A DNA stretch of 64,000 bases, taken from Candidatus Hadarchaeum sp. Lineage in GTDB: Archaea; Hadarchaeota; Hadarchaeia; Hadarchaeales; Hadarchaeaceae. Of the stretch, positions 2,048-17,326 are shown one piece after another. The stretch covers positions 54,744 to 118,743 of the forward strand of contig NZ_JAVZIN010000003.1 in NCBI RefSeq assembly GCF_038871235.1, read 5' to 3'. How positions within the stretch are numbered: the first letter of the stretch is position 1; the number at the start of each line of letters is the position of its first letter. Under the pieces are notes generated by a model. It made no database searches. It saw only the letters and a program-made list of their open reading frames with translations, and was not told the DNA's origin. Both the position numbers and the translations under genes were made by a program.

Positions 2048-2057
2048 GGTAGGTCCT

Positions 2058-2468
2058 ATGCCAATCAAGCTGGAAATTCACCCGGAAAAATGCGTTGGCT
2101 GCAGGTCATGTGAGCTGGCTTGTTCCTTCAAAAAGACCGGCGTGTTTAGCCCGAGTCAGTCGCGGATATCGGTCACGATCAGCAACCCTCGGACAATAAT
2201 GTATCCTGTGGCCTGCATCCAGTGCGTCGAGCAGTCATGCGTCAAGGCCTGTCCGGTTGGGGCGCTAAGAAAAGACGAGGTCACCAACGCCATTGTCTTT
2301 GACCGCGATATCTGTACGGGCTGCGGCCTGTGTGTGAAAAGCTGTCCGTATTCAGCGATAAGGATGGATGAAAGGAGCAGAAAGCCCCTGATTTGCGATC
2401 TTTGCGGCGGTGATCCCGAGTGTGTAAAGTGGTGCCCCACTGCCGCTCTTGAAGCCAAAAGAGTTTGA
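2058..2468 (+). CDS. 4Fe-4S dicluster (DmsB/CooF-like) electron-transfer subunit partnering the AOR
   Basis: Cys motifs CVGCRSCELAC, CIQCVEQSCVKACP, CTGCGLCVKSCP and CDLCGGDPECVKWCP. Start moved to the ATG at 2058, after GAGGT. Confidence 0.9.
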   Translation: MPIKLEIHPEKCVGCRSCELACSFKKTGVFSPSQSRISVTISNPRTIMYPVACIQCVEQSCVKACPVGALRKDEVTNAIVFDRDICTGCGLCVKSCPYSAIRMDERSRKPLICDLCGGDPECVKWCPTAALEAKRV

Positions 2469-2494
2469 AGTTCTAGTTGTTCGCTCAGTCTAGT

Positions 2495-3703
2495 TCAGAT
2501 ATTTCCTTCCCAAATATCTCTTAGCAATGCCTTGATATTTTCTAGCGTAATTACTGCAGGATTGATATCGGGCAGTCCGTAGTTGTACTGTTGTTCCTTG
2601 GCGATGAAAGCGGCCAGTTCATCCAAGTCTTCACGTGGGACGTTTAACTCCTTCAGACTGATGGGCATGTTGAGGTCTAGGAGCAGCTCCTTGAGTCCCT
2701 CGACCACTTGAAGCGCTCTTTTTTTCACATCTTTCGCCGGTTCATCGGTGAAGAATTGTGCCAGCGAGGCGACCCTCTCCGGCCAAGCGGCGATATTGAA
2801 TTTAGTTATATAAGGCAGAACCAAGCCGCAGGCGGCTCCATGAGGTATGTGGTAACGGGGACCAATGGTTTCACCAAGACAGTGGCCAATGTTGACGGCA
2901 GCAGGTGTGGTTATCGCGATGCCTCCGTAGGTGGCTGCCAAGGCCATGCCTGCTCTCGCGACCAGATCTTTTCCGTGATGATAGGCCCTTCTCAGATGCC
3001 TAGCGGCGAGTTCCACAGCCCGGTAGGCGTAGGTGTCTGAGAACATGTTAGCCGTGAATGAAAGAACGGCCTCAACTCCATGGGAGAGGGCATCAAGTCC
3101 GGTGTGCGCAGTCAGTTTCGGTGGCATCGACTGAGAAAGAGTTGGGTCAACAATGGCTACTTCCGAGACGATTTTTGGACTCATCACGAAACCCTTGTAG
3201 CCCTTCTCTTCAATAACCACCGCGTAACCCGAGGCCTCGCTGCCGGTACCGGCGGTGGTGGGGATGAGTATCTTGGGGACTGGTTGCACCTTTATGCTGT
3301 CCTGAAGGTAGGTGATGTAGTCTTTCATTGGTCCCGGGTTGGTGACGGCAGCGGAGGCAAATTTAGCCATATCTAGAGCACTGCCGCCTCCAAAGCCGAT
3401 GACCAAGGCTGGCTTTTCGGCTCTAGCCTTTTCAGCAACCTTCTCCACCATGCTTATGGTGGGTTCTTGCGTGGCTTGGTCATAAACGGTCAGGGTGTAT
3501 TTTTCTTCCTCCAGTGGTTTTAGGATCCTGTTCACCAGCCCTATGTTGATTAGGTTCTTGTCGGTTACGATCAGGATTTTAGAACCCTTCAGAGCTAAGG
3601 GCTCTATTTCGCGGCAAATGTTATCAACCGCATTTGGTCCAAAGATATACTTTTTTGGGTAATTGAACTCCACATATCCAATATTTGAGATTTCCTCAGA
3701 CAT
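2495..3703 (-). CDS. Iron-containing alcohol dehydrogenase
   Basis: GGGSALDMAK, PTTAGTGSE, DALSHGVE, GHCLG and HG metal ligands. Confidence 0.92.
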   Translation of the reverse strand: MSEEISNIGYVEFNYPKKYIFGPNAVDNICREIEPLALKGSKILIVTDKNLINIGLVNRILKPLEEEKYTLTVYDQATQEPTISMVEKVAEKARAEKPALVIGFGGGSALDMAKFASAAVTNPGPMKDYITYLQDSIKVQPVPKILIPTTAGTGSEASGYAVVIEEKGYKGFVMSPKIVSEVAIVDPTLSQSMPPKLTAHTGLDALSHGVEAVLSFTANMFSDTYAYRAVELAARHLRRAYHHGKDLVARAGMALAATYGGIAITTPAAVNIGHCLGETIGPRYHIPHGAACGLVLPYITKFNIAAWPERVASLAQFFTDEPAKDVKKRALQVVEGLKELLLDLNMPISLKELNVPREDLDELAAFIAKEQQYNYGLPDINPAVITLENIKALLRDIWEGNI

Positions 3704-3768
3704 GGGTGAAGTTCACACGTTAGTAAATAAAAATGTTTTGTCCAAATTTTTTGAAATTTTTAATCGGA

Positions 3769-5151
3769 CTAAATAAGAACAGGCACGCCTAGATCTATTA
3801 TTTTCTTTTTCACGTTATTATACAGTTCAGTGTATTCTTTAGTTGGTACCACACGCTTGATGTCGTAACATTCTTGGAATTTTTTACCCAGCGGGGCGTC
3901 TTTGATCTTCCCCTCGTATTCTTTCAAGAGTTTCTTAGCTAACTCGTTTGTCTCATCCCTCTTTAATCCCGCCTTGGCTGCAGCGCGGCCTACCTCACAG
4001 GCCATTCTTGCTTCCACAGGGGTGGTCCTATCTTTGTATTTATTCCTTGCTGCAAAAAATTCCCAGAGGTTAGCACCGGAGACGGTGCTTACTAAACCAT
4101 GGGTGGCGGCCTCAAGGAGTACCATCTCTGTGCATGGTCCAGCAGCGCCGATACCGTTTGACATGCTAAGGAAGGGAGAATTTCTTGCTAAAGCTTGATA
4201 GACCAAGCTGATCATCCAAAGAAGATTTCTTGAGGTATTATTGAGTTGATTTATATCAAAGGGGAAAAACGTGTCGAGGTGTCCTTGATTCACCATTAAT
4301 CCCTGTAAATGAGTCGCCACGCTAACTATTGCTGTGCCTTCTACACCACCGGCATATCCGCCAACCATCGGACCAAATAATGACATGATGATGTATCCGC
4401 ATTTGTGGAAGTTGACCATTCTGTTAAGACCTCCCCAGTCGATCTTCAGTTCTGATATCGTTCCGACCATTCTGCCATCGGTAGTCCTAACGCCCCATTC
4501 GGGATTGCTCACAGAGATTTGGGCGGTGTCCGACAGCGCGGTTTGAACATCCGCCAAGTATATGTTTGGCCTGCCCACTCGCCTCACCGCTTCCCTTATC
4601 ATCAAGGCATGTGCTCCAGCTCCAGCAACATCAGTTGGTGCTTTTGACCTTACCTTTTCACCCCACAGTTCATCAAGCACTCCCGCCCCGACGCCATCCG
4701 CAAGCGGTTCCAGCGCGTAGGCCATTTCAACGATGGCGAAAAGTTCCTCGGAAAAAGGCAGGCTCGGGCTGAACACGCAAAAAGGTCTTCTTCTGTCTTC
4801 AATATCCCTGTGATATACTTCCCTTCTTTCCGTTCCAGATCCGACCACAATTTTTTCCGGAAAGCTGATCAAGGCTTCCTTTATCTCTTCTTCGGTAAAC
4901 ATGATTCTTCTGGAGGTCTCGAGGCACAGGGTCCCCGTGTGCAGGTAGAGTTCTAAGCCTGCCTTCCAGAGATCGTCTGCCAAGCTGTTGTCCGATGGAA
5001 TAATGGTTTCACCATCGAACTTTATATCATACTCCTTTATCAACTCCTTAATCTTTGGAAACAGTATTTTTGTATCGAAGTCTTTTTCCATACACAAGGG
5101 GCCGTTTTCAGATCTTCTTAAAACTTCAGGTATTCTCCAGGGTGGTGCCAT
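3769..5151 (-). CDS. MtmB-family (monomethylamine:corrinoid methyltransferase-like) protein without pyrrolysine
   Basis: LADDLWKAGLEL, ELKID, GGYAGGVEGTAIV, AGPCTEMVLLE and GKKFQECYD. No in-frame TAG. Confidence 0.9.
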   Translation of the reverse strand: MAPPWRIPEVLRRSENGPLCMEKDFDTKILFPKIKELIKEYDIKFDGETIIPSDNSLADDLWKAGLELYLHTGTLCLETSRRIMFTEEEIKEALISFPEKIVVGSGTERREVYHRDIEDRRRPFCVFSPSLPFSEELFAIVEMAYALEPLADGVGAGVLDELWGEKVRSKAPTDVAGAGAHALMIREAVRRVGRPNIYLADVQTALSDTAQISVSNPEWGVRTTDGRMVGTISELKIDWGGLNRMVNFHKCGYIIMSLFGPMVGGYAGGVEGTAIVSVATHLQGLMVNQGHLDTFFPFDINQLNNTSRNLLWMISLVYQALARNSPFLSMSNGIGAAGPCTEMVLLEAATHGLVSTVSGANLWEFFAARNKYKDRTTPVEARMACEVGRAAAKAGLKRDETNELAKKLLKEYEGKIKDAPLGKKFQECYDIKRVVPTKEYTELYNNVKKKIIDLGVPVLI

Positions 5152-5152
5152 T

Positions 5153-5815
5153 TCACGCTCCTCCTTTTAACATTAGTTCTTTAGCTATATTCACACCCTT
5201 AACGGCAGAATCCGCCCATCCATCAGCACCTATCTCCTCCGCCCACTCCTTAGTTACAGGTGCGCCCCCAATCAGAACGAGGAATTTCTCCTTCTGCGAG
5301 ATGCCCTTTAAGATTTCGATGACCTCCCTTTGGGAGGGCATGGATGTCGTCATTAGTGCCGATAGAGCGATGATGTCTGCTTTTGTTTCGTTTGCCCTTT
5401 TGACCACTTCTAGAGAGGGCACATCTCTTCCGAGATCGTAAACCTCAAATCCGTTTACTTTAAGGAGAAAAGCCACAATGTTTTTCCCAATATCGTGGAT
5501 GTCACCAGCAACTGTAGCGATTACCACCTTTCCGAATTTTCTTTCCGCGGCCATCAATTTTCTCTTTTCAATTTCTGACATTATCACGTCAGACGCAGCT
5601 TTCATGACATCCGCGATTAGCATTAGCTCAGGTAAAAATAGCTCTCCGTTTTCATATTTCTCTCCCAAAGTTTTCGCTATGGAAGCAAACTCATCAAAAA
5701 TTTTAGTTGGCTCAATATTTTTGTTTAAAATCTCTACAACAACAGACTTAGCGACATCTTCATTATACTCAAAGATACTTTGTCTCAGTTTTTCGAACAG
5801 TTCATCATTACTCAT
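5153..5815 (-). CDS. Methyltransferase cognate corrinoid protein (MtmC/MtbC-like)
   Basis: B12-binding motif DIHDIGKNIV with SALMTTS and GGAP. N-terminal cap domain ELFLPEL. Confidence 0.93.
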   Translation of the reverse strand: MSNDELFEKLRQSIFEYNEDVAKSVVVEILNKNIEPTKIFDEFASIAKTLGEKYENGELFLPELMLIADVMKAASDVIMSEIEKRKLMAAERKFGKVVIATVAGDIHDIGKNIVAFLLKVNGFEVYDLGRDVPSLEVVKRANETKADIIALSALMTTSMPSQREVIEILKGISQKEKFLVLIGGAPVTKEWAEEIGADGWADSAVKGVNIAKELMLKGGA

Positions 5816-7245
5816 TTCTTTCCCTTTGCGCCTGCTTTCTCAAGTTTACTGATTCCAACGTATAGAACGACAGATATTGCCATTCCTATTACTGCATTTT
5901 CAATCCAGTTGAATATGTAGATATATTCCAAATAGATGTAGATGATATAGGTTACTATAATCGAGATCAGCGCCCCGTTTCTCGTACCTCCCTCCTTCCA
6001 AAATAGTCTCAAAAATAGCGGCCCGGTTAGAACCGCAGCCAAGCCTGTTGAGCCAATGATCGCCAGATATGCAAGCAGCTCCGGTGGCCTAGTAATCACC
6101 CAAGTGAGGCTGCACAGAGCGAGAATTATCACCAATAATCTTGACACCCAGAACCGTGTACGGTCAGAAACTTTGTATTTTTCCCACACTGGTTTTAGCG
6201 CCGTTTCAAAATTTGCGCATGAAGCTATCAGATAGGAGTCCACGCTTGAAATTATTGCGTTTACAATACCAAGGGAGCCAAAGACCATAAGAGCCTCTGG
6301 CAAGTAGCGGCTAAACATTTCCGGCAAGGCTGTATCTGGATCGGCTAGTCCAGGTAAAACCACTCTTGCCGTTAGACCAACCAATACCGGAAAAGAGGTT
6401 AATAGTGTTAGCAAGGAAACAATTGTCGCTACGGTCGCTCTTCTTGTTGCAGGCATCTCGGCAACGGAGATATATTTCTGTGAGAATGACGGCGCAAATT
6501 GGAAGGCCGTATATGCGATCACGATAGCTACAAAGGTCCAAGGAACGGTGCTTGCATATGGCACTCCGGTTGTTGGATAGACCAGTTCAGGATCTATAGC
6601 AGCAGCTCTTTCAAAAAGAGGGCCGAAACCGCCGACTGCGGCAAAGATTATGTATATGCATAAAAAGCAAGCAGCAATCATCCATACTATTGAAACTACA
6701 TCGGTGTACATGACTGCTCTGAGACCGCCTTGCGTCACGTAGATTATGGTAATAATCATAAACACTAAAATGGCAAACAGAGTCGGAATTCCAAGCATTC
6801 TGGACAAAATTGCACCTGCGGCTTTAAATTGTGCAGTGACGAACATCATGTACATTATGAAAATAAGTGCAGCAACTAAAGCTCTTAAGGCGTTGCTATC
6901 TCCATGAGTGTAACCAATTAGGTCGCCGATTGACGTGGCTTTATATTTTGCGATCCAGCTCTTGTAATACGGCACGGCAAAATAGACGACTAAAAATATT
7001 CCCGGAATCCACGCTATTGGTGTGGATAATAGTTCGATGACTCCGTAAGAATATCCGACGCCAGGGGCCCCTATATAAGCCCACCCACTTGCGGAGGCAG
7101 CGGCAAGAGAGCAGGCAAACAAATAGGGTGATAATCTCCAGCCACCGGTAAAAAACTCCTCCCTCGTCATCGTTCTTCGCATCGCCAAAGTTCCCAGACC
7201 TATCATCAATATTATGAACGCTATTAAACCGATCCAAGCAATCAT
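5812..7245 (-). CDS. Sodium:solute symporter (PutP/SSS family)
   Basis: About 13 hydrophobic segments. Motifs SGWAYIGAPG, GGLRAVMYTD, DPDTALP and AIISSVDSYL. ATGA overlap with the corrinoid gene. Confidence 0.9.
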   Translation of the reverse strand: MIAWIGLIAFIILMIGLGTLAMRRTMTREEFFTGGWRLSPYLFACSLAAASASGWAYIGAPGVGYSYGVIELLSTPIAWIPGIFLVVYFAVPYYKSWIAKYKATSIGDLIGYTHGDSNALRALVAALIFIMYMMFVTAQFKAAGAILSRMLGIPTLFAILVFMIITIIYVTQGGLRAVMYTDVVSIVWMIAACFLCIYIIFAAVGGFGPLFERAAAIDPELVYPTTGVPYASTVPWTFVAIVIAYTAFQFAPSFSQKYISVAEMPATRRATVATIVSLLTLLTSFPVLVGLTARVVLPGLADPDTALPEMFSRYLPEALMVFGSLGIVNAIISSVDSYLIASCANFETALKPVWEKYKVSDRTRFWVSRLLVIILALCSLTWVITRPPELLAYLAIIGSTGLAAVLTGPLFLRLFWKEGGTRNGALISIIVTYIIYIYLEYIYIFNWIENAVIGMAISVVLYVGISKLEKAGAKGKK

Positions 7246-7550: not shown

Positions 7551-7736
7551 ATGTCAAAATTGGATGATATCCTTAGTGTATTTGATGATGGTAAAGTGCA
7601 TGGAGTAGAGGAGATCATCAAAAGATTTTCACTACCCGGTGATGTGGTTTTAAAGGTGCTTTATTTTTTAGCCGAGTTTGGGTTCATTAATTTTGATGGA
7701 ACCCAAGGAAAAAGTACGGACTTTTCTAAAAAATGA
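7551..7736 (+). CDS. Small winged-HTH-like protein
   Basis: Pattern DILSVFDDGKVHGVEEI...LYFLAEFGFI, preceded by a GAGG SD-like sequence. Confidence 0.55.
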   Translation: MSKLDDILSVFDDGKVHGVEEIIKRFSLPGDVVLKVLYFLAEFGFINFDGTQGKSTDFSKK

Positions 7737-7742
7737 TTTCTA

Positions 7743-8051
7743 TTAAAGCTGAAGAAGATTCTGAATTTCATTATATTTTTTCAAAAACTCATTTCCCTTC
7801 TCAGTGACCGACCATTTAATCGGGTGGGTTTTTTCAATCTTTATCAGCCCCATCCTAAGTAACTCATCCAGATATTTTTGGCATCGGTTGAAGTTCAGAT
7901 TGGCGCGGTAGACAATGTGGCTTTTTCTTGAGCAAGTTCCTATGGCATTTAAAATATCTACATATAAGGTGATTATATTTCTCCTTTTCCTATCGGAGTT
8001 GACCTCCTTCAATTTGCCCGCCTTCTCAGATGTGTTTCTGCTGGCACACAT
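7743..8051 (-). CDS. Archaeal winged-HTH transcriptional regulator (COG3432/HTH_45-like)
   Basis: RRNIITLYVDIL...KSHIVYRANLNFNRCQKYLDELLRMGLI...VTEKGNEFL. Confidence 0.82.
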   Translation of the reverse strand: MCASRNTSEKAGKLKEVNSDRKRRNIITLYVDILNAIGTCSRKSHIVYRANLNFNRCQKYLDELLRMGLIKIEKTHPIKWSVTEKGNEFLKKYNEIQNLLQL

Positions 8052-8146
8052 CCATGGTTGAGTTTACTTAGTGGTGTATAAAAAGGTAACAATCGACTGG
8101 CCCATTTGCAATTGGCCAATGCCTGAAGAAAAGAATTAACTTGGGT

Positions 8147-8557
8147 TCACCTGTGGTCGGAATCTAAATCTTTTTCAGGATTTGGTTTTAATTCAGACCC
8201 TTCTCCATGGACAACGATCTGCAGCTTTTTCTTCAGCTGCTCCCGGATCTGATCCATGATTAAAAAATCCGTCTCAATCCTCTTTTTCAGGGCTTGCATT
8301 TTTTTCTCCAGTCTTTCAAGTTCTTCCATTTCACGTTGAAGATTTTCTAAAGTTGAGCCCAGCCTTGCTAAGACATGTAACTGTTCGTAGGCGTCGCTAG
8401 GGTTGTTCAACATTCCACGTTTCGATGCATCCGCCATGTTGTCTTTTATCTGATTTAACAGTTTTTCCATCTTGGTTAGCTTTTCTTTGGGGATTATCAT
8501 TGAGTCTAGCGTTGTCGTAATCTCTGCCCACAGTTTAGCGATTTCCTCAGTGCCCAA
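8147..8557 (-). CDS. Hypothetical coiled-coil protein
   Basis: 136 aa ORF rich in L/E/K/Q heptads, divergent from the PadR gene. Confidence 0.55.
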   Translation of the reverse strand: MGTEEIAKLWAEITTTLDSMIIPKEKLTKMEKLLNQIKDNMADASKRGMLNNPSDAYEQLHVLARLGSTLENLQREMEELERLEKKMQALKKRIETDFLIMDQIREQLKKKLQIVVHGEGSELKPNPEKDLDSDHR

Positions 8558-8667
8558 CCGTGCACCCGAGAAGAAGACCCTAGGGCCCGAAAAAATGCTT
8601 TTCTTATTTTTAATCTATCTAATTTCGACACAAAAATTGATATATTTAGAAGGATGTTGATAGTACA

Positions 8668-9024
8668 GTGGTAAAGATGTCAGAGAGTTCTGGAAGAAAA
8701 GATGGCGCCGGTAGCAGCTTAGTTCATAAACTGGTCAAAAGTGAGCTGGAGTACCTCTTTTTGGCTTTGCTAATGAGGCGGCCGATGTGCGGCACCGACA
8801 TCATTAAGGAAATCCATGTAAAGTTCGGTCTGTTGCTCAGCCCAGGCACGGTTTATCCATTGTTACATGATTTGGAGACAAGAGGATTGATACAACATGA
8901 GCCGGGGACGAAGATAAAGATCTATAGTACGGTCAAAGGGATGAGGCAGAAAATCAAAGACATGTTGGAACAGCGAATCAGTGACCTGAAGCAGGTTATT
9001 GAATTTCTCCTGCAGGGCGAATGA
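8668..9024 (+). CDS. PadR-family transcriptional regulator
   Basis: RPMCGTDIIKEI...LSPGTVYPLLHDLETRGLI. Confidence 0.88.
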   Translation: MVKMSESSGRKDGAGSSLVHKLVKSELEYLFLALLMRRPMCGTDIIKEIHVKFGLLLSPGTVYPLLHDLETRGLIQHEPGTKIKIYSTVKGMRQKIKDMLEQRISDLKQVIEFLLQGE

Positions 9025-9042
9025 GATCAGGCATTTAGTCAA

Positions 9043-10014
9043 TCAGGTCCTTTGGATGGACTCAAGAAGATATCTCTGGGCGGCGATGAAATCATTTATC
9101 CTGCTCTCCGCCAGCGCTCGACCCTGCTCGGTGAGGACATAAATCTTGGACCGCATTGATTCTCCCTTCATTATCGTGACCAGACCCCGGGCCTCAAGTG
9201 AATAGAGAAGGGAGTAAACAGTTCCTTGGCTAAGCGAGGTGTAGTAGCGCTGGTAGATGGTCTTGATGACGTCATAGCCGCACATAGGGCGCTCGCTCAG
9301 CATAGAGAGTACAATGGTTTCCAGATGCCGCTTGACGAAGTGCTCTAGGGATTCCTTCGGGGCCAGCTCGAGTTCGGGGATTTCTCTTCGGGACCTGAAG
9401 TTCAGCGCTAGGGTGTTTGTTCCATCAACTGTGGAGATCATTACGTTCCTGTTAATTTCAAGCAGCGTTTTGATTTCCTCCTCATTTAGTGATTCTAGAT
9501 TGAACGCTACTATTGCCGTGCGCAAAATTGGCTGTCTTTTTCTCTCCTGCGGCGGCGTGAAGAACTCTTCCTTCCTAGCCATCAGTTCCTTCAGAAAAGT
9601 GAACGCTTTACCGAAACTGTGTCGGGTGAGAAGGGCACCGAAATCTACCAAGACTCTGGCTGCGCATTTTTCGGAGCGGGACCTAGCGCACAGCTCTTTC
9701 AGCTTTTCACCCAGCTCCTCGATTTCCTTGGGAAGATATCCCTTGCCCAATGGGAACTTCAACAGCCTGCCACTGGACAGGGCCTCGCCGAAGATCGTCT
9801 CCAGCTGCAGCTTATTGTTTGACTCGTCGTACGCGTAGAGGCAGGTTTCGCCATTAGCTAGGCCGCTGTCAATGAAGGAGCCAAAAGACCGCCAGACATC
9901 CACCCCTGGGCTGTAAAGGAGCAGCGAGCATTCGTTGACCAAGAGTTCGTTGACTAGTAGCACCTTTTTATCGAGCGGAATCGTGGCTGCGTTCCTAGGT
10001 ATCGCCATAACCAC
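9043..10014 (-). CDS. MEDS-like sensory domain fused to a C-terminal PadR DNA-binding domain
   Basis: N-terminal SLLLY...FIDSGLANGETCLY resembles the MEDS signature. C-terminal PMCGYDVIKTI...SQGTVYSLLYSLEARGLV...YVLTEQG is PadR. Confidence 0.75.
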   Translation of the reverse strand: MVMAIPRNAATIPLDKKVLLVNELLVNECSLLLYSPGVDVWRSFGSFIDSGLANGETCLYAYDESNNKLQLETIFGEALSSGRLLKFPLGKGYLPKEIEELGEKLKELCARSRSEKCAARVLVDFGALLTRHSFGKAFTFLKELMARKEEFFTPPQERKRQPILRTAIVAFNLESLNEEEIKTLLEINRNVMISTVDGTNTLALNFRSRREIPELELAPKESLEHFVKRHLETIVLSMLSERPMCGYDVIKTIYQRYYTSLSQGTVYSLLYSLEARGLVTIMKGESMRSKIYVLTEQGRALAESRINDFIAAQRYLLESIQRT

Positions 10015-10104
10015 CCACCTGCCTTTTCCGATTGGTCATCGTGATTTTCCCTTCCTTATTAAACCCAGTCTCTGTCTTGACGTTTAAGCTGTTTGAAAGT
10101 CTCA

Positions 10105-11976
10105 TTAAATCTCCTCCTCGACTTGAATTACCTCCATGAAGCGTCTCATCATCTCCAGCTGCTTGGGCTCGAGGGCCAGCGGCGACACGGGGACGATGAG
10201 CCTAGCGCGATTAACTACGGTGATTTCCCTAATGTCGTGCATCATCTTCAGCGTCAGATCAAAGCCATTAGTGGTAATCAGGTATTCTAGGCCCTCGAGC
10301 ATGACGACCGCATTCTCCTTTTTAGAGACAAATGCCGAGATCCGGTCCCTGATGATTCCGAGGTTCGATGGGGAAATCGCGTCTTCCACCTCCACTTTGG
10401 AAAGCCAGAGTATGGTGATGCGTTCAGGAATGTTGTGTTCTCTCCTAGCGTGTGCTGGATGTGATGTAGTTATGATGAGCCCTGGGTTTCCAAAACGCAC
10501 CAAATCGAAGAACATCCTGAAGGCGTGTTTTGAACTCTTTCCTTCCACAAGATAGCACTTTCCCGCAATTAGGGGAAGATAGGTACCTGAAATTTGAACA
10601 CCTTTAGGAATAGCTTCGATGATCCCATAGTGCTGCAGAAAACCGCCGTACCTGCGCAGCAGTTCGGAGAAAATCTCCGATCCTATCTCCGAGGCTTTTT
10701 TTATACCCAGATCGCTTTTGGCAGCATCATAACAGATGTTAGCAGCGATCGAAAATGCTCTCACAATTTCTTGCATGCCCTCTTTGAACTTTGCTTTAGA
10801 TAGATATCGGTAAAGTTTGCTCAGGTCGAACTTTCCCTCATCAGAAAGTATAATTCTGCCTAGAACCGGGTTCTTGCTCGCCAGTTCACTTAACTTCTTT
10901 TTCATCTCAATTTTCGACGACTTCTTGCATTTGCTCAACAACAATTCCAGATAGCGTTTGAATAGGATGTAGGCGAAGTTGCTGGCTTTGTCCGCGTCAG
11001 CTACCCCTTCAGGCAGCCCGATGACTAAATCCCTTTCGTAAACAGCCTCGTTGTATTTACCCAGAGGAACTCCCGCCTTCCAGAGTGCTATATCGTCCCG
11101 GTATAGTTCCGCCTCGGTGGCCACCAGGTAGTTCGCTTGATTCGGTGAGGTGAGCACTGCGTAGAGGTCTATAATGGTGGTATTTAGGTCGGAAAAAGCG
11201 TTGAAAAGTTCTTGGGTTCTTTCGCTCTCGTGAATTCGTTTGCTGTTTTTTATTAACTGGTCTACGTTGAGCAATCCACTCTCGATAATTTTGTCCCCGA
11301 AAAGTATGGGGTGTTCTTCAATGCACTGAGATATGGTATCCTCGACACCAGAGGCGCCGATGACAGGTATAATGTGCGCCAGAAATCTGTTCGTTAGGTT
11401 TGAATAAGCCACTAAGGTTTGGATGTCGTTCTGGACCATTTTAGCTTCTAGGATTTTCAGAGATGGAGTACTCGAAACTAGGAAGAGTTTCCTTTCCGCG
11501 ATGACTAAGCAAACAAACACAACTATCCAAATAGTCTCGCTTCCGACGCTGTACCAGTTGAACCCCTCAGTAACCGTTTGAAAGAAAAATAGCAGATAAA
11601 TGGGTATTCCTAAGAGCAGTACAACCGTTCCAATTAAAGACCACTTGGAACTCGATAGACTTAGCACATTCCGCAGAGAGCCGTAGATTTTTTTAAATGA
11701 ATTGATTTTCCAAGCTTGGCCCATTGAAATTAAGACCGTTCCGGCCACCCAAAGTAGTGCCGCCGTGTAAGCTAGTTCGTTGATGTAATTTAAAAAAATG
11801 ACCACGGCCATGGACGCCATTGAAAGCAAGAAACAGGTTGCCCCTACAGTGGTCATGATCAGGGCCGCGGAATATCTGGTCCTCTTCATGTTTTCAATGG
11901 AGTAGATTACAAAGACTAGCGCTAGGATTAAGAGTACCATACCGAGGAACAGAGCAAAAAATTCTGGGGGGCTCAT
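10105..11976 (-). CDS. Membrane protein: about 5 TM helices, two repeated helical modules and a C-terminal DUF835 (inactive KaiC-like) domain
   Basis: Hydrophobic first 160 aa. C-terminal GLIITTSHP, ILWLSKVE, ISPSNL, VVMLEGLEYLITTNGF and ALEPKQL match DUF835. Confidence 0.82.
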   Translation of the reverse strand: MSPPEFFALFLGMVLLILALVFVIYSIENMKRTRYSAALIMTTVGATCFLLSMASMAVVIFLNYINELAYTAALLWVAGTVLISMGQAWKINSFKKIYGSLRNVLSLSSSKWSLIGTVVLLLGIPIYLLFFFQTVTEGFNWYSVGSETIWIVVFVCLVIAERKLFLVSSTPSLKILEAKMVQNDIQTLVAYSNLTNRFLAHIIPVIGASGVEDTISQCIEEHPILFGDKIIESGLLNVDQLIKNSKRIHESERTQELFNAFSDLNTTIIDLYAVLTSPNQANYLVATEAELYRDDIALWKAGVPLGKYNEAVYERDLVIGLPEGVADADKASNFAYILFKRYLELLLSKCKKSSKIEMKKKLSELASKNPVLGRIILSDEGKFDLSKLYRYLSKAKFKEGMQEIVRAFSIAANICYDAAKSDLGIKKASEIGSEIFSELLRRYGGFLQHYGIIEAIPKGVQISGTYLPLIAGKCYLVEGKSSKHAFRMFFDLVRFGNPGLIITTSHPAHARREHNIPERITILWLSKVEVEDAISPSNLGIIRDRISAFVSKKENAVVMLEGLEYLITTNGFDLTLKMMHDIREITVVNRARLIVPVSPLALEPKQLEMMRRFMEVIQVEEEI

Positions 11977-12860
11977 TTCTCGCGAACCTCCATTACCCTC
12001 TCAAGCGCAAGAGCTTGCTCCTCGGTAAGCTTTTTTGGGTCAATTGAGAGTATCAGGATCAACCTCTTTTTAACGCACAGGTCTTTTAGTTCCCTGAGGA
12101 ATTCAAGAGCTACCTTAAAACTATTGACCAGCTTTATCTCGTTGAAACAGTCAAACATCACCACCGAGCCAAGGTCAATCTTTGAGACCAAGAACTTCAG
12201 CCCCTCTAAATCATCAGGCAGTATCGATTTTTCCTTAGTTTTGCTGAAAGTCAGCCAGACGATTTGGACGTTTTTCACCCTGTATCTATGTTTTACCTTG
12301 TTCGGTTCGAGTTTGCTCACCCAGAGGACCTTAAATGAGTATTGAACCGCTTCCCTTATCATCGCATAGCTTTTTTCCGGTTTTTCCTCTTGCAGAAGAT
12401 GCACCGAACCCGGACGCATCATTTCAAAAATTGGCGGCAGTTTGGTATTTTTAGATAGTTTCCCAATAACGCTGTAAGCGGAGAGAAGACCGCCGTGATC
12501 TCGTAGCATCTGGCGCAACCAAATATCTGCGGCCGGTGAACTTGATTTGAATTCCAGATAGGTTTCGACGAACAAATCCTTGTAAGGCTCAGAAAGATTA
12601 GGTTCCATCTGATCGCCGAGATAAACGAGAATTTTTCTTACAGTTTCGGGCAGATTTAGAGAGCTTAGAGTAGATGTGTTCAATAAAATATTTCCCTTTT
12701 CGTCCAAGTGAACTGTATCACTGAGGTCAACGTTTTTAAGAAATTTTTGGAATTCTATAACATTTTCTCCCAGCTCCTTTCCAGGTAGGCTCAGCAGTAA
12801 CTCTCGCAGGAACGATTTCAAAGTTGATATGGATGGTACTTCGGAAGTAGGTTTCTCCAT
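11973..12860 (-). CDS. Soluble protein with a helical module and a C-terminal DUF835 domain
   Basis: VLWVSKLEP, IVWLT, ILPDDLE, VVMFDCFNEIKLVNSF and LILSIDPKKLTEEQALALER. ATGA overlap with the next gene. Confidence 0.78.
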   Translation of the reverse strand: MEKPTSEVPSISTLKSFLRELLLSLPGKELGENVIEFQKFLKNVDLSDTVHLDEKGNILLNTSTLSSLNLPETVRKILVYLGDQMEPNLSEPYKDLFVETYLEFKSSSPAADIWLRQMLRDHGGLLSAYSVIGKLSKNTKLPPIFEMMRPGSVHLLQEEKPEKSYAMIREAVQYSFKVLWVSKLEPNKVKHRYRVKNVQIVWLTFSKTKEKSILPDDLEGLKFLVSKIDLGSVVMFDCFNEIKLVNSFKVALEFLRELKDLCVKKRLILILSIDPKKLTEEQALALERVMEVREK

Positions 12861-12898
12861 ATCTGTCCCTCGCCAATTATCGAGAGCAGTCTTTTTTT

Positions 12899-13639
12899 CT
12901 AAAGTGAGGCCTTGCCATAGATTCTTTCGCCCTCGCTACTTGTGGGTAGGGATTTTTCCTTTGTCTCTCCCTCGAATTTTAGTGATAAGGCCCATGCAAT
13001 GGCAATGAAGGCAAGGGTACTTATTATCCCGCCTAGAGGCGGATAGTTAACATACTGGACTAAAAGCATGTTAGTAATCGAGACGGCGACGACATAGAAG
13101 ACAAAGTAACTGATCAGCAGAAGCCTGTATTTTTTTCTCAGCAGTTCTGTCGTGGCGGCTCTAATTAAATTGATCCCCACGATCAAATTTGCCAAAATGT
13201 AGATCAAATTGAAAAAGACAGCGATTGCGAAATACCAAGTTGTGGCATACCCGTAGCTCCAGCCAAATTCAGTCCAAAAAATTTTGAAAGGCATGGTTGA
13301 AAGGGTAATTACGTCCATAATTAAGGCCGGGGTCAATACTAACAGGTTTTTCCAGGTTTGTTTTTTTAGCATAAGGAAAGTGATTAGTAAAAAGGCTGGA
13401 AAAGTGAAGCCAAAAACAGCGCCTAGGGTGATGAAATCAGCGGACAGCTCGGCAGTAGGGGCATTTCTATGTAAAAAAGCCATCAGAATCCATAGCCCGG
13501 CGAAGAGCCCGTAAAGAAAGAAAGATCGGTAGATCCAACTTTTTGGATTCCTCATGATTAGGAAAAATGAAACCACGAAAATCAGACCGCTACCGATTAG
13601 GTATTGGAGGGTGATTGGAATGAAATACCAGTCAGCCAA
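12899..13639 (-). CDS. Stand-alone HisKA_7TM-like membrane sensor (7 TM helices, no kinase domain)
   Basis: Seven hydrophobic segments with RNPKSWIYRSFFLY...LW and RKKYRLLL patterns. TTG start 2 nt after the GH3 stop. Confidence 0.7.
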   Translation of the reverse strand: MADWYFIPITLQYLIGSGLIFVVSFFLIMRNPKSWIYRSFFLYGLFAGLWILMAFLHRNAPTAELSADFITLGAVFGFTFPAFLLITFLMLKKQTWKNLLVLTPALIMDVITLSTMPFKIFWTEFGWSYGYATTWYFAIAVFFNLIYILANLIVGINLIRAATTELLRKKYRLLLISYFVFYVVAVSITNMLLVQYVNYPPLGGIISTLAFIAIAWALSLKFEGETKEKSLPTSSEGERIYGKASL

Positions 13640-13641
13640 GT

Positions 13642-15261
13642 TTACACGCTCCTAAGCATTTCGATGTCATCGCTTTTATCGCTACTGGCTATTTTTGGTG
13701 GCTTTATATTTCCGATTGGGACTCCCTCCTTCATTTTTTTCATAGAATACCTCATGAAGGCGCCCTTTTTAAGGTACTGAACTTCGATTATTTCATGAGG
13801 TTCCTTAATCCCGAAATCATCCACGTAATTTTTAAACTCTGGATTTATCCGGTAAAGGGCATTGAATAAGGCCTCCGCGGTTTTTTTCTCAGAGTAATCC
13901 CAATCCGGCTCCATCAAAAGGAGCAGGTGTTCCTTCGGGTCGGTCGCCTTTGCCAAGCACCACCTGTCGGTTTCCTTAAGGCCGGCCTCAAAGAGGGCTT
14001 TGACCGCAATGGCCTGCGAGACCCTGAAGTAACCATAGATATCGATGACCTCGTTTTTTCTGCCCTCAAATTCAAAGATGGGCAGACCGTCGTCCCTAAA
14101 GTCCACGACCTTGAATTTATCCTCGATATTGTACCTCATCAGCATGGTTCCGAAAGGCGTGCCGACGAGTTCGTATATTTCTCCCTTTTTCAGTTCGTCG
14201 ATCTTTTTTATCTCCCCTGATTCGGTTAAAAACTCAAAATACATGTTGCGCAGGTCAGGAATCAAGTCCAGCTTTCTGTCGGCATGTCCGTACATTACCA
14301 TCCCGAATTCCGTACTGCCATAGGCGTTGGTGGGGATGACCCCAAATTCCTCCTTGATATGGTCGAGATACAGTCGCGTGTCATATCCACCTAGACCGAT
14401 TCCCTTTACTGGCAGCACCTCTCTCGCTTTGTTGTATTTTTTCCCCTTAATTTTGCACTGGAGATACTTCAAAAAGAGCAGGAATTTTGTTACCCCCAAG
14501 TTCATCGATTGGTAATAGTCCTTGAAAAATTCATCGGGTTTAGTGAAATATTGTGCCATCATGTAGAAGGTGGAGGCAATTCCCCCGGCGATGTCGATTC
14601 TGGCCCCCTTTTCAATTTCCTTGATGATGATCCACATCTTCTTCCGCATGTTGCTGATGTTGTCGGTAACTGTGCGAGGCGGAATCGGCCTGAGTAGCTT
14701 TTCAATTGGATGCATCTGATAGCCTGAAGCGTAAGGCGCCGGCGCTACTATGTTAAGATAAGTGTCCCCCCTGCGTAGCTTGGTGTCACCAGGTTTCTCG
14801 CTACAAGTTATTATTAGGTAAGTGGTTAGGCTTTCCCATTCTCCGCGGAAGCTCTTTCCATAGGCCAACCATTTGCTTTTTCCGCTACTACCAGAGGTCT
14901 TGGCGCAGAAGTCGAACTCTTCAGGCAACCACCCGTCGAGCATTGGGGCAACCATCCGGCTTATTCGCTGATAGTAGTCCCACCAGAGTTCCCCATTCTG
15001 CCTAGGTACGGTCCTGCTGAGCAGCTCCACCTTTTCACCGAACTCATGTAGAATGGGATAATCCTCATAGGTCGTCAGCGGTACCTCTTCAAAGCTCTTG
15101 ACACCCTGAGGACAAAGCTTCGCGGCCATTTTTGTCTGCTGCCATCTTTTAAAGTATTCATCCCGGGCTTGGAGATTGAATTCCAGCTGTTCGGAAAATG
15201 ATTTTTCAAGGAAAGAGCAATGCTCCTTCCACAGCTCCTCGCCTTCCCCCATAGAGACCAT
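13642..15261 (-). CDS. GH3 (auxin-responsive/JAR1-like) family acyl-adenylate-forming enzyme
   Basis: VPLTTYEDY, motif I KTSGSSGKSK, motif II YGSTE, motif III MRYNIED, then FEFEGR. 539 aa. Confidence 0.85.
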   Translation of the reverse strand: MVSMGEGEELWKEHCSFLEKSFSEQLEFNLQARDEYFKRWQQTKMAAKLCPQGVKSFEEVPLTTYEDYPILHEFGEKVELLSRTVPRQNGELWWDYYQRISRMVAPMLDGWLPEEFDFCAKTSGSSGKSKWLAYGKSFRGEWESLTTYLIITCSEKPGDTKLRRGDTYLNIVAPAPYASGYQMHPIEKLLRPIPPRTVTDNISNMRKKMWIIIKEIEKGARIDIAGGIASTFYMMAQYFTKPDEFFKDYYQSMNLGVTKFLLFLKYLQCKIKGKKYNKAREVLPVKGIGLGGYDTRLYLDHIKEEFGVIPTNAYGSTEFGMVMYGHADRKLDLIPDLRNMYFEFLTESGEIKKIDELKKGEIYELVGTPFGTMLMRYNIEDKFKVVDFRDDGLPIFEFEGRKNEVIDIYGYFRVSQAIAVKALFEAGLKETDRWCLAKATDPKEHLLLLMEPDWDYSEKKTAEALFNALYRINPEFKNYVDDFGIKEPHEIIEVQYLKKGAFMRYSMKKMKEGVPIGNIKPPKIASSDKSDDIEMLRSV

Positions 15262-15393
15262 ATCTCCCGAAAGTCCGGGCGTTATTTAAGGTAATGTTTT
15301 AGTTTCTGAAACTTCCCCTTTATAAATCGCTGTGGGCGCTGAAAAATTGCCTTATCTATCAAAGTTTTCCAAAAATCATTTTGAAATTCGGGA

Positions 15394-16089
15394 CTACTCA
15401 TAAACCGGTCCGAGGACTTCTAATCCACCCTCATTGACCAAAAGCTGGTGCTTCTTCATGGAGTGCCTGCAGGCGCGCATCTTCCTGATCTGAATGTATC
15501 TGGTGACGAGTTCCGGGGTCTCAATCACACCCAGTTCGATGACCCCATCAGCGAGATAGGATTCCGGAATATGTCTTCTTCCCTCACCCACAACCTGAGC
15601 CTCTTGAATGATGAATGAGGTCAAGCCGCTGTCCCTAAGCAGGTTGAAAAAGTGGTAACTTTCTCTCCTCAGGTTATCCGTCTTAGCTAGGGTCTGCAGG
15701 GCATTCAGGGAGTCAAGGCAGAAGACGGTGAACTTTTCCTTCATCTCCTCCTTGTAGAACTTGATCACGTCTTCAGTGATGCTCAGCATATTTAGCGACG
15801 GTTCTTCTTCCCGCCACTCCTTACGGATGTCTTGATAGTCAAAGATCTGAAGATGATCCGGTTTCTTGATTCCCAAGCTTTCCATGTTTCTCAGGTGACT
15901 TTCCTTCGACTCTTCAAGTGTAACATATACTCCGAACTCATCCCTGTGTTTATTCAGGTAGTTAGAGAGAACGTTGTAAACAAAGCTGGATTTCATCGAT
16001 CCCACTCCACCGGTCACCAGTATCACGTAGCCCTTGGGTATATCATTCCTCAAGACGTTATCCAGCCCTTTTACAGTGTCACGGAGCAT
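15394..16089 (-). CDS. Single-domain KaiC/RAD55-family ATPase
   Basis: GLDNVL, Walker A variant GGVGSMKS, YVTLEES, Walker B FCLDSL, YLADGVIEL and IRKMR. Confidence 0.9.
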   Translation of the reverse strand: MLRDTVKGLDNVLRNDIPKGYVILVTGGVGSMKSSFVYNVLSNYLNKHRDEFGVYVTLEESKESHLRNMESLGIKKPDHLQIFDYQDIRKEWREEEPSLNMLSITEDVIKFYKEEMKEKFTVFCLDSLNALQTLAKTDNLRRESYHFFNLLRDSGLTSFIIQEAQVVGEGRRHIPESYLADGVIELGVIETPELVTRYIQIRKMRACRHSMKKHQLLVNEGGLEVLGPVYE

Positions 16090-16162
16090 GGGTTCGCCAC
16101 TAATGGCTTTTCAATGTGATTATAAACCCTTTTCTTTCAGCCCTTGCAACAAATCCGGTGGT

Positions 16163-16843
16163 TCAGAACTCGCCATGTGGATAGCGGCCGGATTTTCGAC
16201 GCTTTTTCAGCTTTGCCCGAACAGGCAGTATCAGCAGGGCGCCGGCAACGAACCCACCTATGTGTGCCCAGTAGGCGACGCCCTCTGAGATTCCGGTTAA
16301 CCAAGTCACCGAGGCTGAGAACACCTGTAGCAGGAACCAGAATCCTAGGAAGAAAATCGCCGGGACCATGATTATCCTCCAGAAAAGATAGATTCCTACC
16401 GCCGTGTAGACCCGGGCTCTGGGGTAGAGCACGAGATAGGCTCCCAGCACCCCTGAAATGGCCCCCGAGGCGCCTATAGTGGGTATCTCTGAGCTAGGGT
16501 CGGTCAGAGCGTGAATGAGGCTTGCAATTACACCCGTTCCCAGATAGAAAGCCAGAAATTTGCCGTGGCCTAGGGCATCCTCAACGTTATCGCCGAAGAT
16601 GTAGAGGTAAAGCATGTTCCCCAAGATGTGTAGGATTCCGCCGTGGAGAAACATCGAGATGAACAGCGTTTCAAGCCTTTTGCCCGCGAGCACCTCGGTT
16701 GGTCTCATCCCATAGAGCTCAATAGTGCTTTCAAACGTCCCGGTGAGCAGCGTGAGCACGAATATGGCAATGTTGATTACAATCAGCGCGATATTAACGT
16801 AGGGAAACCGCGAGCTGGGATTTTCATCCTTAAGGGGAAACAC
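16163..16843 (-). CDS. Rhomboid-family intramembrane serine protease
   Basis: MFLHGGILHILGNMLYL, GASGAISG and AYWAHIGGF. Confidence 0.93.
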   Translation of the reverse strand: MFPLKDENPSSRFPYVNIALIVINIAIFVLTLLTGTFESTIELYGMRPTEVLAGKRLETLFISMFLHGGILHILGNMLYLYIFGDNVEDALGHGKFLAFYLGTGVIASLIHALTDPSSEIPTIGASGAISGVLGAYLVLYPRARVYTAVGIYLFWRIIMVPAIFFLGFWFLLQVFSASVTWLTGISEGVAYWAHIGGFVAGALLILPVRAKLKKRRKSGRYPHGEF

Positions 16844-16849
16844 CGCAAT

Positions 16850-17326
16850 TCACCGCTGCTTTCTCCCAGGGTTCACCACGATGACGGCCTCCCTAAATTT
16901 CTGATTGGGCACGATGATTAGTCTGCCGTCCGGGATCCTTAGCTTTGTGACCGTCAGCGAGATTTCCACGACCGTTCCCCGTTTCCCCTCTATTTCAACT
17001 TCAGTCCCCACTTTGATGTTTTTATCCCCTATCAGCGAGATTCCGGCGAGGATGTTGGATATCCACACATCCTTAACGGCGAAAAGTAGAACGGCGCTGA
17101 TGGTGCTGAAGGCTAGGAATAGCTCTACTATCGCTTGAATTACCCCCCAGACGTTGAGGAGGTAAAGAAAGACCACGATGGTGAAGATCATTGATAGGGA
17201 ATTTGACAACCGCTGGTGCCCCACCATTATCTTTAGCTTTCTCCGGAATAGGCTACCCAGAACTGCCCAGAATATAACGATGATAGCGACAACAATGAGA
17301 GTGGTCAGAATCTGTGACTCCCACAT
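16850..17326 (-). CDS. Small-conductance mechanosensitive channel (MscS family, short form)
   Basis: Three TM helices, then KDVWISNILAGI, IKVGTEVEI, GTVVEI and IIVPN. Confidence 0.8.
   Translation of the reverse strand: MWESQILTTLIVVAIIVIFWAVLGSLFRRKLKIMVGHQRLSNSLSMIFTIVVFLYLLNVWGVIQAIVELFLAFSTISAVLLFAVKDVWISNILAGISLIGDKNIKVGTEVEIEGKRGTVVEISLTVTKLRIPDGRLIIVPNQKFREAVIVVNPGRKQR

Follow-up and report, generated by a model that had tools for sequence, protein, structure and literature searches.

The window analysed here is a 64,000-nucleotide (nt) stretch of DNA, C3:54744-118743 in the genome of a Hadarchaeum-like archaeon (1.2 Mb, 94.75% complete). Its minus strand carries an array of six genes, which encode in order a KaiC-like ATPase, a GH3-like enzyme, a seven-transmembrane (7TM) protein, a DUF835 protein, a membrane DUF835 protein and a PadR fusion. 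This order was proposed in an initial annotation made from the sequence and is borne out by the open reading frames (ORFs) and their Pfam matches. The tight packing described for the four central genes is likewise confirmed by the coordinates and by reading the sequence. The gap between the GH3-like and 7TM genes is 2 nt and that between the 7TM and DUF835 genes is 38 nt (both from coordinates, the 38 nt also read directly). The stop codon of the 295-amino-acid (aa) DUF835 gene and the start codon of the 623-aa DUF835 gene share 4 nt, ATGA, as read in the sequence. Intergenic regions of 132 nt and 90 nt separate the KaiC gene from the GH3-like gene and the membrane DUF835 gene from the PadR fusion, respectively. 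Across genomes, the GH3-like gene and its neighbouring receptor gene form a conserved, horizontally mobile two-gene module, and the possible function of this pair is the main subject of what follows.

The GH3-like enzyme and the split receptor

In Pfam, the GH3-like protein matches GH3_M with 29.4 bits against a cut-off of 23.6. The matches to GH3_C (19.4 bits) and to the GH3 N-domain (15.9 bits) are both below 23.6, and an NCBIfam search of the protein gives zero matches. Homologues were sought among 5.8 billion clustered proteins, with 8000 candidates scored. At least 157 relatives were found, nearly all of which are 533-545 aa long. The 120 relatives listed are 44-89% identical to the window enzyme and belong to the Hadarchaeota, Bathyarchaeota, Thermoplasmatota and a few bacteria.

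Conservation was assessed, and a family profile built, on 22 sequences. The window protein contains the motifs TSGSSGKSK (residues 122-130), YGSTE (314-318) and RY..ED (RYNIED, 376-381), as well as a C-terminal G-x-I-K-P-P-K. In the accessible text of PMC12493201, the GH3 motifs are given as S/T-S-G-T-S/T-x-G-x-x-K (I), Y-G-S-S/T-E (II) and a Y-R-x-G-D-like sequence (III). All three of these nucleotide-binding motifs are present in the window enzyme. Across the 22 sequences, G124, R376 and D381 are invariant, T122, G127, K130, Y314, E318 and Y377 are kept in at least 90%, and the C-terminal Lys is conserved. When the family profile is compared with the Protein Data Bank (PDB), all 10 sequences at E<=0.01 are plant GH3s. 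The best of these has an E-value of 3.4e-9 over profile positions 309-527, and a C-terminal GQ(I/Y)K(P/T)P motif aligns between the profile and the plant structures. No transmembrane (TM) segment is found in the protein, which is cytoplasmic.

The GH3 identity proposed in the initial annotation therefore holds, with GH3_M above its cut-off, motifs I-III kept and plant GH3s as the only structures matched by the profile. The window protein is probably an active, divergent GH3-type adenylating acyl-acid amido synthetase, since the three nucleotide-binding motifs are present with key residues invariant or nearly so.

The window 7TM protein has no Pfam or NCBIfam match of its own, including to the HisKA_7TM model PF16927. 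Its homologues do match this model (29.5 bits in L019 with a cut-off of 28.6, 25.6 bits in L026, and E<=0.001 in 13 of 53 representatives), and it is through them that the HisKA_7TM-like label is supported. The family was delimited by a full HMMER search of a 1.84-billion-protein library. It is a compact subfamily, with 75 clusters at E<=1e-30 and a gap beyond them, and the 7TM domain is N-terminal in every homologue (residues 1 to ~235).

The AlphaFold 2 (AF2) model of the 7TM protein has a mean predicted local distance difference test score (pLDDT) of 90.1. It consists of seven helices with a beta-hairpin at residues 118-131, between helices 4 and 5, which carries an invariant GW.Y motif. 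The model is wholly membrane-embedded and has no large extracellular domain. Its best Foldseek matches in the PDB are class C G-protein-coupled receptor (GPCR) 7TM bundles (E ~7e-4, TMq 0.5-0.58, with 0.56 for the top match), a match that is read no further than as a sign of a putative receptor-like seven-helix bundle. Positive charge is concentrated on loops 1, 3 and 5 and the C-terminus, with a summed mean lysine plus arginine count of 10.3 compared to 2.7 on the other side, and the topology is therefore predicted to be N-terminus outside and C-terminus cytoplasmic. Approximately 11 of 17 conserved positions are at the predicted outer face. The invariant features there are the helix-1 QY, W50, R58 in HRxAP, the hairpin GW.Y, N190 and PPxGG. 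Numbered on the window protein, the conserved residues of the outer face include Q12/Y13, R58, G126/W127/Y129, N190 and P200/G203/G204. A putative binding site formed by these positions would lie away from the cytoplasmic enzyme.

The 7TM domain is followed by a conserved helical juxtamembrane (JM) domain of ~120 residues. It contains an invariant PGKELG motif and, in the alignment, invariant acidic and Lys residues. Relatives of either output type, DUF835 or kinase, carry it in one polypeptide with the 7TM domain. In the window, it occupies residues ~14-134 of the 295-aa protein (AF2 pLDDT 86.4), in which DUF835 is at 159-290. Because the JM and 7TM domains are fused in most relatives, the window 7TM gene and the JM-DUF835 gene are read as two halves of one receptor. 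The same two-gene form is seen in L008 and in three genomes of the genus, while a further genome of that genus, G038, has a fused 529-aa frame. The "soluble DUF835" of the initial annotation is thus not a separate relay; it corresponds to the cytoplasmic half of a receptor that is fused in most relatives, the same-genus genome included. A complex prediction of the 7TM protein and JM domain (residues 1-158) with the GH3-like enzyme scored 0.00 and 0.00, which gives no answer and is used neither way.

Two sequencing runs each contain 6% of the sampled words. A 257-nt assembled contig from a run labelled as a metatranscriptome is identical to window positions 12694-12949, across the stop of the 7TM gene and the start of the next gene. 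Short contigs from the same run are also within the GH3-like gene, within the KaiC gene and at the end of the rhomboid gene. The 257-nt contig is an independent sighting of the split junction only and not proof of co-transcription, with DNA carry-over possible.

Enzyme-receptor pairing and receptor output across genomes

A genome scan, with one genome per species and seeded by the enzyme alignment alone, yielded 31 loci. ORFs were called in these loci and searched with the window proteins, and the neighbours were also clustered independently of the window. A 7TM homologue is present in 25 of the 31 loci and is the next gene in 24. It is directly downstream on the same strand in 17 loci and directly upstream on the opposite strand in 7; in L014 it is three genes away. 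In each of the six loci without a 7TM gene, the contig stops at or within the enzyme gene on the side expected for the receptor. Three of these (L009, L035 and L036) have no downstream flank and three (L020, L024 and L033) have no upstream flank, and the downstream genes of the latter resemble those of divergent-type loci. The initial annotation had named unlinked archaeal GH3 genes as a result that would count against it, and this is not what the loci show.

The 31 loci span the Hadarchaeota, Hydrothermarchaeota, Thermoplasmata, Bathyarchaeia, Nitrososphaeria, Desulfobacteraceae, Neomarinimicrobiota and Spirochaetales. Adjacency of the GH3-like and 7TM genes is seen in at least five archaeal phyla and some bacteria, and start and stop codons overlap or nearly touch in many loci. 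Four bacterial MAG (metagenome-assembled genome) contigs, L018, L026, L030 and L037 (Desulfobacteraceae, Neomarinimicrobiota, Spirochaetales and one unclassified), carry the enzyme-receptor pair with DUF835, a family that Pfam describes as archaeal.

Two genome samples, both unbiased, give the same pattern. Together they contain 13 enzyme-bearing genomes, all of which carry a 7TM gene, with the two genes adjacent in 12. Among 66 Hadarchaeota genomes, 10 contain the enzyme and 12 the 7TM gene. Each of the 10 enzyme genomes has a 7TM gene, and it is adjacent in 9; in the other genome, G033, both genes are at contig ends. The two Hadarchaeota genomes with a 7TM gene only are a 79%-complete MAG and a genome with a weak match (5.9e-13). 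Of 121 Bathyarchaeia genomes, 3 contain the enzyme family (E<=1e-246), and in all of these a 7TM gene lies next to it. Six more Bathyarchaeia genomes contain distant, partial GH3-like matches only (E 1e-22 to 1e-28) and no 7TM match. Two have a 7TM match without the enzyme, one of them 1 kb from a contig start and the other weak. In all three genomes checked with the 7TM profile, the 7TM gene is single-copy and the sole match is the enzyme's neighbour.

In one Hadarchaeota genome (G049:C1:645631-647835), the match to the GH3-like gene falls into two overlapping pieces, and a TGA and a TAG interrupt the 7TM gene beside it. Both partners, enzyme and receptor, appear to have decayed together.

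The output end of the receptor varies among the 25 loci with a 7TM gene. DUF835 is present in 11, to which are added L015, with a match below the cut-off, and L032, assigned by similarity to L031. In 8 loci the receptor carries HATPase_c together with HisKA or HisKA_2, in some cases with PAS as well; it is split in L025 and 770 aa long in L017. In the remaining 4 the receptor is truncated and is left without an assigned output. A Pfam census was also made of 53 of the best 150 7TM-family proteins, comprising all those of at least 430 aa down to approximately E 1e-29 and omitting shorter ones, which are probably fragments or split forms. In this census, DUF835 is found in 31 proteins, HATPase_c in 9, HisKA in 8, HisKA_2 in 2, DUF7090 in 8 and DUF7504 in 3. 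DUF835 occupies the place of the kinase core in orthologous receptors. In a maximum likelihood tree of the enzyme (30 rows, eight of them without an output label owing to a truncated or absent receptor, and excluding L035 and L036, which are GH3 fragments of <430 aa), well-supported branches force at least two changes of output. One is at the Bathyarchaeia kinase clade and the other at the lone PAS-HisKA_2 receptor of L021.

DUF835 is matched in the 295-aa and 623-aa window proteins with 69.0 and 96.2 bits, respectively, against a cut-off of 33.1. The model of the 295-aa protein has a RecA/KaiC-like core. FlaH (4yds, E 1.9e-4) is its top Foldseek match and Rad51, RadA and KaiC-CI come next, in agreement with the earlier description of DUF835 as a KaiC/RecA-fold domain. 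No Walker A sequence (GxxxxGK[ST]) follows the first core strand in any of 10 aligned sequences of the 295-aa type, and an invariant D237 persists at the Walker-B-like position in the same alignment. From these residues, the DUF835 transmitter is best described as an inactive KaiC fold.

The 623-aa protein, a second receptor, begins with a multi-TM region, continues with a long helical region and ends in a DUF835 transmitter. Homologues of this protein are present in 9 of the 31 loci, and the forms in L012 and L013 end in HisKA and HATPase_c. L026 and L037 also encode another HisKA_7TM-DUF835 protein, together with a HisKA_2 kinase and a hybrid REC-kinase, where REC denotes a receiver domain. 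In L036 (8422-9522), a single protein with REC, DUF835 and an ArsR-type helix-turn-helix (HTH) is encoded divergently from the GH3-like gene. This amounts to a response regulator with an inactive KaiC domain as its middle module.

KaiC, receivers, regulators and flanking genes

The neighbourhood survey that the initial annotation suggested shows that DUF835 domains and KaiC also recur. Of the 31 loci, 9 contain a KaiC gene, which in 7 immediately precedes the enzyme gene on its upstream side. The receptors of these loci are all of the DUF835 type, have a weak DUF835 match or are truncated. Four loci from the Nitrososphaeria and Bathyarchaeia share the order HTH-V4R, KaiC, enzyme, receptor, with overlapping or near-touching genes. 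The Walker A sequence of the window KaiC is GGVGSMKS, compared to GGPGTGKT in the other GH3-linked KaiCs, so that Met replaces a conserved Gly. The Walker B Asp and the EE pair are kept.

Kinase-type Bathyarchaeia loci contain a convergent trio of genes, which encode two small proteins and a receiver protein, followed by a TrmB-like regulator. The small proteins are ~131 aa (10 loci) and ~101 aa (9 loci) and belong to no Pfam family. They are always followed by the 150-160 aa receiver and are convergent with the GH3-like gene (L017:8407-9554, with equivalents in L019, L020, L023, L024, L025, L027, L028, L033 and L034). Mixed loci also occur, with REC ahead of the enzyme in L011-L013 and REC-DUF835-HTH in L036. 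Overall, KaiC co-varies with DUF835 receptors and REC with kinase receptors.

A genome-wide search of the window genome gives no match to Response_reg and none to HisKA. Two of its frames match HATPase_c, one being topoisomerase VI B and the other a HATPase_c_3 protein that lacks HisKA, and neither is a kinase. The absence of a histidine kinase or receiver, first noted for the array, thus extends to the whole 94.75%-complete genome. The description "kinase-free" in the initial annotation is accordingly correct for the window genome but not for the module in general, because the same sensor and enzyme are found with HisKA-HATPase and receivers in the Bathyarchaeia. DUF835 genes number six in the window genome, and KaiC-like genes above the cut-off at least four. 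One of the latter, C9:4130-4876, is the best PF06745 match and is a few kb from a DUF835 protein in a 763-aa frame (G000:C9:4130-9386). With this second neighbourhood on C9, proximity of KaiC and DUF835 is not unique to the window.

The PadR fusion has a C-terminal PadR winged helix at residues 235-301 (51.0 bits, cut-off 27), and the plus-strand PadR gene matches with 37.8 bits. The N-terminus of the fusion had been labelled MEDS-like. This label is not established, since the match to MEDS (PF14417) is 23.2 bits, below the cut-off of 29.8, and hhalign gives non-significant probabilities of 1.8% with the DUF835 profile and 0.8% with the KaiC profile. An orthologue of the fusion is at the same position in L016 only; the L008 contig ends too early to tell. 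The coiled-coil protein is also conserved after the PadR fusion in L016 only (E 2.3e-20), and homologues of the HTH_45 protein are near the module in three Bathyarchaeia loci (L017, L025 and L034). The proposed PadR output is clear as a domain but lineage-specific (1 of 31 loci), and HTH-V4R, TrmB-like or REC proteins stand in its place elsewhere. The initial annotation had also listed a second PadR and two winged-HTH genes after the array. The PadR gene is present but on the plus strand, one winged HTH is confirmed, and the protein at 8147-8557 is neither a PadR nor a winged HTH.

Table 1. Features of the array and its surroundings in the window.
Feature	Coordinates	Strand	Evidence or remark
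KaiC-like ATPase, single-domain	15394-16089	minus	PF06745 E 6.9e-34
GH3-like protein, 539 aa	13642-15261	minus	GH3_M above Pfam cut-off
7TM protein, 246 aa, sensor half of split receptor	12899-13639	minus	HisKA_7TM-like via homologues
JM-DUF835 protein, 295 aa, cytoplasmic half of split receptor	11973-12860	minus	PF05763 E 4.6e-19
Membrane DUF835 protein, 623 aa, second receptor	10105-11976	minus	PF05763 E 1.8e-27
PadR fusion, 323 aa, candidate output regulator	9043-10014	minus	PadR (PF03551) E 1.4e-13
Small PadR-family regulator, convergent with array	8668-9024	plus	PadR E 2e-9
Coiled-coil protein, 136 aa, family-less	8147-8557	minus	Below every Pfam/NCBIfam cut-off
Winged-helix protein, HTH_45, Sso10a family	7743-8051	minus	HTH_45 E 1.2e-18; NF053610 60.5 bits
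Small ORF, 61 aa	7551-7736	plus	No Pfam match
TATA-like TTTATAAA	15319-15326	minus	65 nt upstream of GH3 ATG; by-eye motif sighting only
TATA-like TTTATAAT	16119-16126	minus	37 nt upstream of KaiC ATG; by-eye motif sighting only

TATA-like motifs precede both the KaiC and the GH3-like genes. The motif at 15319-15326 may give the four tightly packed genes a promoter of their own, and because of the two motifs KaiC may be transcribed apart from them.

Several other genes surround the array. A rhomboid protease gene (16163-17326) is directly upstream of KaiC in the window, as in all three Hadarchaeota loci (L008, L009 and L016). A fragment of an MscS-type channel gene, also upstream of the array, recurs in L008 only. 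Further along the minus strand (3769-7245) is a gene for a full-length MtmB-family protein of 460 aa (PF05369, E 2.5e-106) with no in-frame stop. It adjoins genes for a methyltransferase-type corrinoid protein (5153-5815) and a sodium:solute symporter (5812-7245). Together these genes would make up an MtmB-like methyltransferase cluster, free of pyrrolysine, in the Hadarchaeon. A reading of the array as a defence system was tried and rejected. In a PADLOC scan of 8 proteins, the six core proteins have zero matches and the winged-HTH protein has three weak matches (E 2e-4 to 6e-4).

Possible functions and known systems

The enzyme may make the ligand of the receptor beside it, so that the two would form a synthase-receptor pair of an autoinducer or homeostatic kind. 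Under this proposal, the cytoplasmic GH3-like enzyme would conjugate a carboxylic acid, probably lipophilic, to an amino acid or amine. The amide product would then reach the outer leaflet or the medium and bind the outward-facing conserved pocket of the 7TM domain, and the JM domain would hand the change on to the transmitter. In the Hadarchaeon, DUF835 would join or remodel an oligomer with the adjacent KaiC ATPase, and the PadR-fusion and winged-helix proteins would then set transcription. In the Bathyarchaeia, the same sensor would drive a normal histidine kinase and receiver. The relay from DUF835 through KaiC to the PadR fusion is proposed from gene adjacency and from the KaiC-hub model reportedly put forward in 2017.

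The synthase-receptor pair is favoured, at a little short of an even chance, because the enzyme appears intact, the most conserved surface of the receptor is predicted to face outward, the bacterial GH3-like enzyme OlsH provides a precedent, and some modules contain other small-molecule enzymes. Class I/II aminotransferases are found in 6 loci (L011-L013, L026, L030 and L037). UbiA prenyltransferase genes are inside 4 modules (L011:11127-12008, L012:8190-9059, L013:8639-9607 and the L014 region 1931-4655). In L014, a fusion of an ICMT/PEMT-like methyltransferase with a metallo-beta-lactamase and an ATC-hydrolase-family gene are between the enzyme and the receptor. The UbiA, aminotransferase and ICMT-type genes may hint at the enzyme substrate.

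Several points weigh against this proposal. The pair is known from the sequences of uncultured MAGs alone, and adjacency fits a regulator beside its target or a receptor-modifying enzyme equally well. No exporter is conserved in the module among the 31 loci. A cytoplasmic input to the receptor is possible, since the cytoplasmic JM domain is also strongly conserved (PGKELG). The downstream relay has points against it as well. KaiC is found in just 9 of the 31 loci, and the GH3-adjacent KaiCs of other phyla are only 24-27% identical to the window KaiC. The PadR fusion recurs in a single locus, the MEDS/KaiC-like nature of its N-terminus is not established, and the TATA-like motifs suggest separate transcription units for KaiC and the GH3-like gene. 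The broader reading of the module is a mobile archaeal and bacterial communication system, with a GH3-made acyl-amino-acid "hormone", a GPCR-like 7TM receptor and, where two-component systems are absent, a KaiC-family pseudo-ATPase output. We consider this broader reading rather doubtful.

The enzyme and sensor could instead serve feedback control of a membrane amino-lipid, in which the enzyme makes an N-acyl amino acid lipid, the 7TM domain monitors the membrane or the lipid, and the purpose is homeostasis and not communication. OlsH forms N-acyl ornithine from free fatty acids, according to the accessible text of PMC12493201, and the modelled sensor is wholly membrane-embedded without a large extracellular domain. 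UbiA genes inside four modules and the rhomboid and MscS membrane genes that flank Hadarchaeum loci are also consistent with a lipid role. However, the family is found in 10 of 66 and 3 of 121 genomes, a patchy distribution that is unusual for a core membrane function, and no OlsI-like O-acyltransferase is found among the annotated neighbours. Such amino lipids are also described as unreported in archaea in the part of PMC12493201 that was accessible. Lipid homeostasis is on balance unlikely. The enzyme might otherwise act on the receptor itself, by adenylating a receptor carboxylate (for example in the JM PGKELG motif) or ligating an amine to it, in a tuning akin to that by CheR/CheB. It tracks the 7TM-JM unit regardless of the transmitter, the JM domain has invariant acidic and Lys residues, and start and stop codons overlap or nearly touch in many loci. 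The characterised GH3 enzymes (the plant PDB relatives and OlsH), however, act on small-molecule acids. We know of no GH3 enzyme that modifies a protein, and we rate receptor modification as quite unlikely.

A signal-inactivating enzyme would reverse the roles. The receptor would sense an external or metabolic carboxylic acid and the enzyme would conjugate this acid after its import and thereby remove it, in the way that auxin is handled by plant group II GH3s, which would result in desensitisation. Plant GH3s that inactivate indole-3-acetic acid (IAA) are among the PDB relatives of the profile, and inactivation was already named in the initial annotation as the alternative to synthesis. The conserved receptor pocket is nevertheless predicted to face outward while the enzyme is cytoplasmic, and no importer is conserved in the module among the 31 loci; inactivation is also rated as quite unlikely. 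That the genes merely co-travel on a mobile island, without functional coupling, is scarcely credible. The module is indeed patchy and has evidently been transferred between phyla, bacteria included. However, adjacency survives a change of orientation (7 divergent and 17 co-directional loci), a change of transmitter, gene fission (the window, L008 and L025) and the turnover of all other neighbours, and the enzyme and 7TM genes are disrupted together in G049.

The interest of the enzyme-receptor module is high because two questions become testable, namely the ligand of HisKA_7TM-type sensors and whether DUF835/KaiC transduces signals. HisKA_7TM-type sensors have no known ligand, and an adjacent small-molecule ligase is a concrete biochemical lead, with the kinase-type orthologue offering an easy phosphorylation read-out. 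DUF835/inactivated-KaiC signalling in archaea has so far been a purely computational proposal. A single sensor family is found with DUF835 and a neighbouring KaiC in some loci and with a histidine kinase and a neighbouring REC in others, which is natural domain-swap evidence for DUF835 in the transmitter position. If the product is a released signal, it would represent a new prokaryotic signal class in the Hadarchaeota, Bathyarchaeia, Nitrososphaeria and Thermoplasmatota, groups in which, to our knowledge, cell-cell signalling is essentially undescribed. The communication-system reading, if true, would provide the first ligand-defined entry into the hypothetical KaiC signalling network and a prokaryotic counterpart of plant GH3 hormone conjugation.

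Plant GH3s (JAR1/GH3.11, PBS3/GH3.12 and the IAA-amido synthetases) are the only solved relatives of the enzyme profile. They share with the window enzyme the three nucleotide-binding motifs and a C-terminal G-Q-x-K-x-P-(R/K) motif. Plant GH3s make or unmake signalling-active amide conjugates, and by analogy the same is proposed for the window enzyme. Unlike them, the window enzyme is prokaryotic, is ~540 aa long compared to 575-620 aa, and passes the cut-off for GH3_M only, with a highly divergent N-terminal half. It is also genetically tied to a membrane receptor, whereas the plant receptors of GH3-linked hormones are soluble F-box proteins.

The prokaryotic GH3-like protein OlsH of Singulisphaera acidiphila uses ATP and Mg2+ to join free fatty acids to an amino acid, as described in the accessible text of PMC12493201. 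Its production of N-acyl ornithine means that lipid-like amide products have a bacterial precedent. OlsH, which is likened here to the window enzyme by description, differs in that its gene is in an operon with that of the O-acyltransferase OlsI for bulk lipid synthesis, without a receptor. The OlsH survey covered bacteria only (PMC12493201).

HisKA_7TM (PF16927) kinases have an N-terminal 7TM module before the transmitter, as in the window receptor family, but members of the latter mostly end in DUF835 and carry the extra JM domain. Papers that name HisKA_7TM mention, in their accessible text, no ligand or linked enzyme for it. Makarova, Galperin and Koonin (2017, mBio) are said to have proposed KaiC and inactivated-KaiC domains (DUF835 and MEDS) as signalling hubs in archaea. 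The window likewise has KaiC beside DUF835 genes; the exchange of DUF835 for a kinase on one sensor family and the link to GH3 are absent from the literature searched. The accessible text of PMC5847659 presents DUF835 as a KaiC domain that has been inactivated and is linked to sensors and REC domains. No GH3 enzyme tied to a 7TM/DUF835 or 7TM/kinase receptor is described in the literature searched, the coverage of which excludes the 2017 KaiC-hub paper and its supplements, and the accessible parts of PMC5847659, PMC6944256, PMC6393860 and PMC9425974 describe no GH3-receptor pairing.

In gene arrangement, the synthase-receptor pair proposed here can be compared with autoinducer synthases and their membrane sensor kinases. 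Among the latter, CqsA/CqsS and LuxM/LuxN have an enzyme gene that adjoins the gene of a polytopic receptor, a ligand site in the TM bundle and lipophilic ligands. The module differs from them in its GH3 adenylation, in place of pyridoxal phosphate-dependent or acyltransferase chemistry, in the fold of its receptor, and in an output through a KaiC-family pseudo-ATPase and not a phosphorelay. GH3, HisKA_7TM-like, DUF835, KaiC and PadR are all known families; their combination is new.

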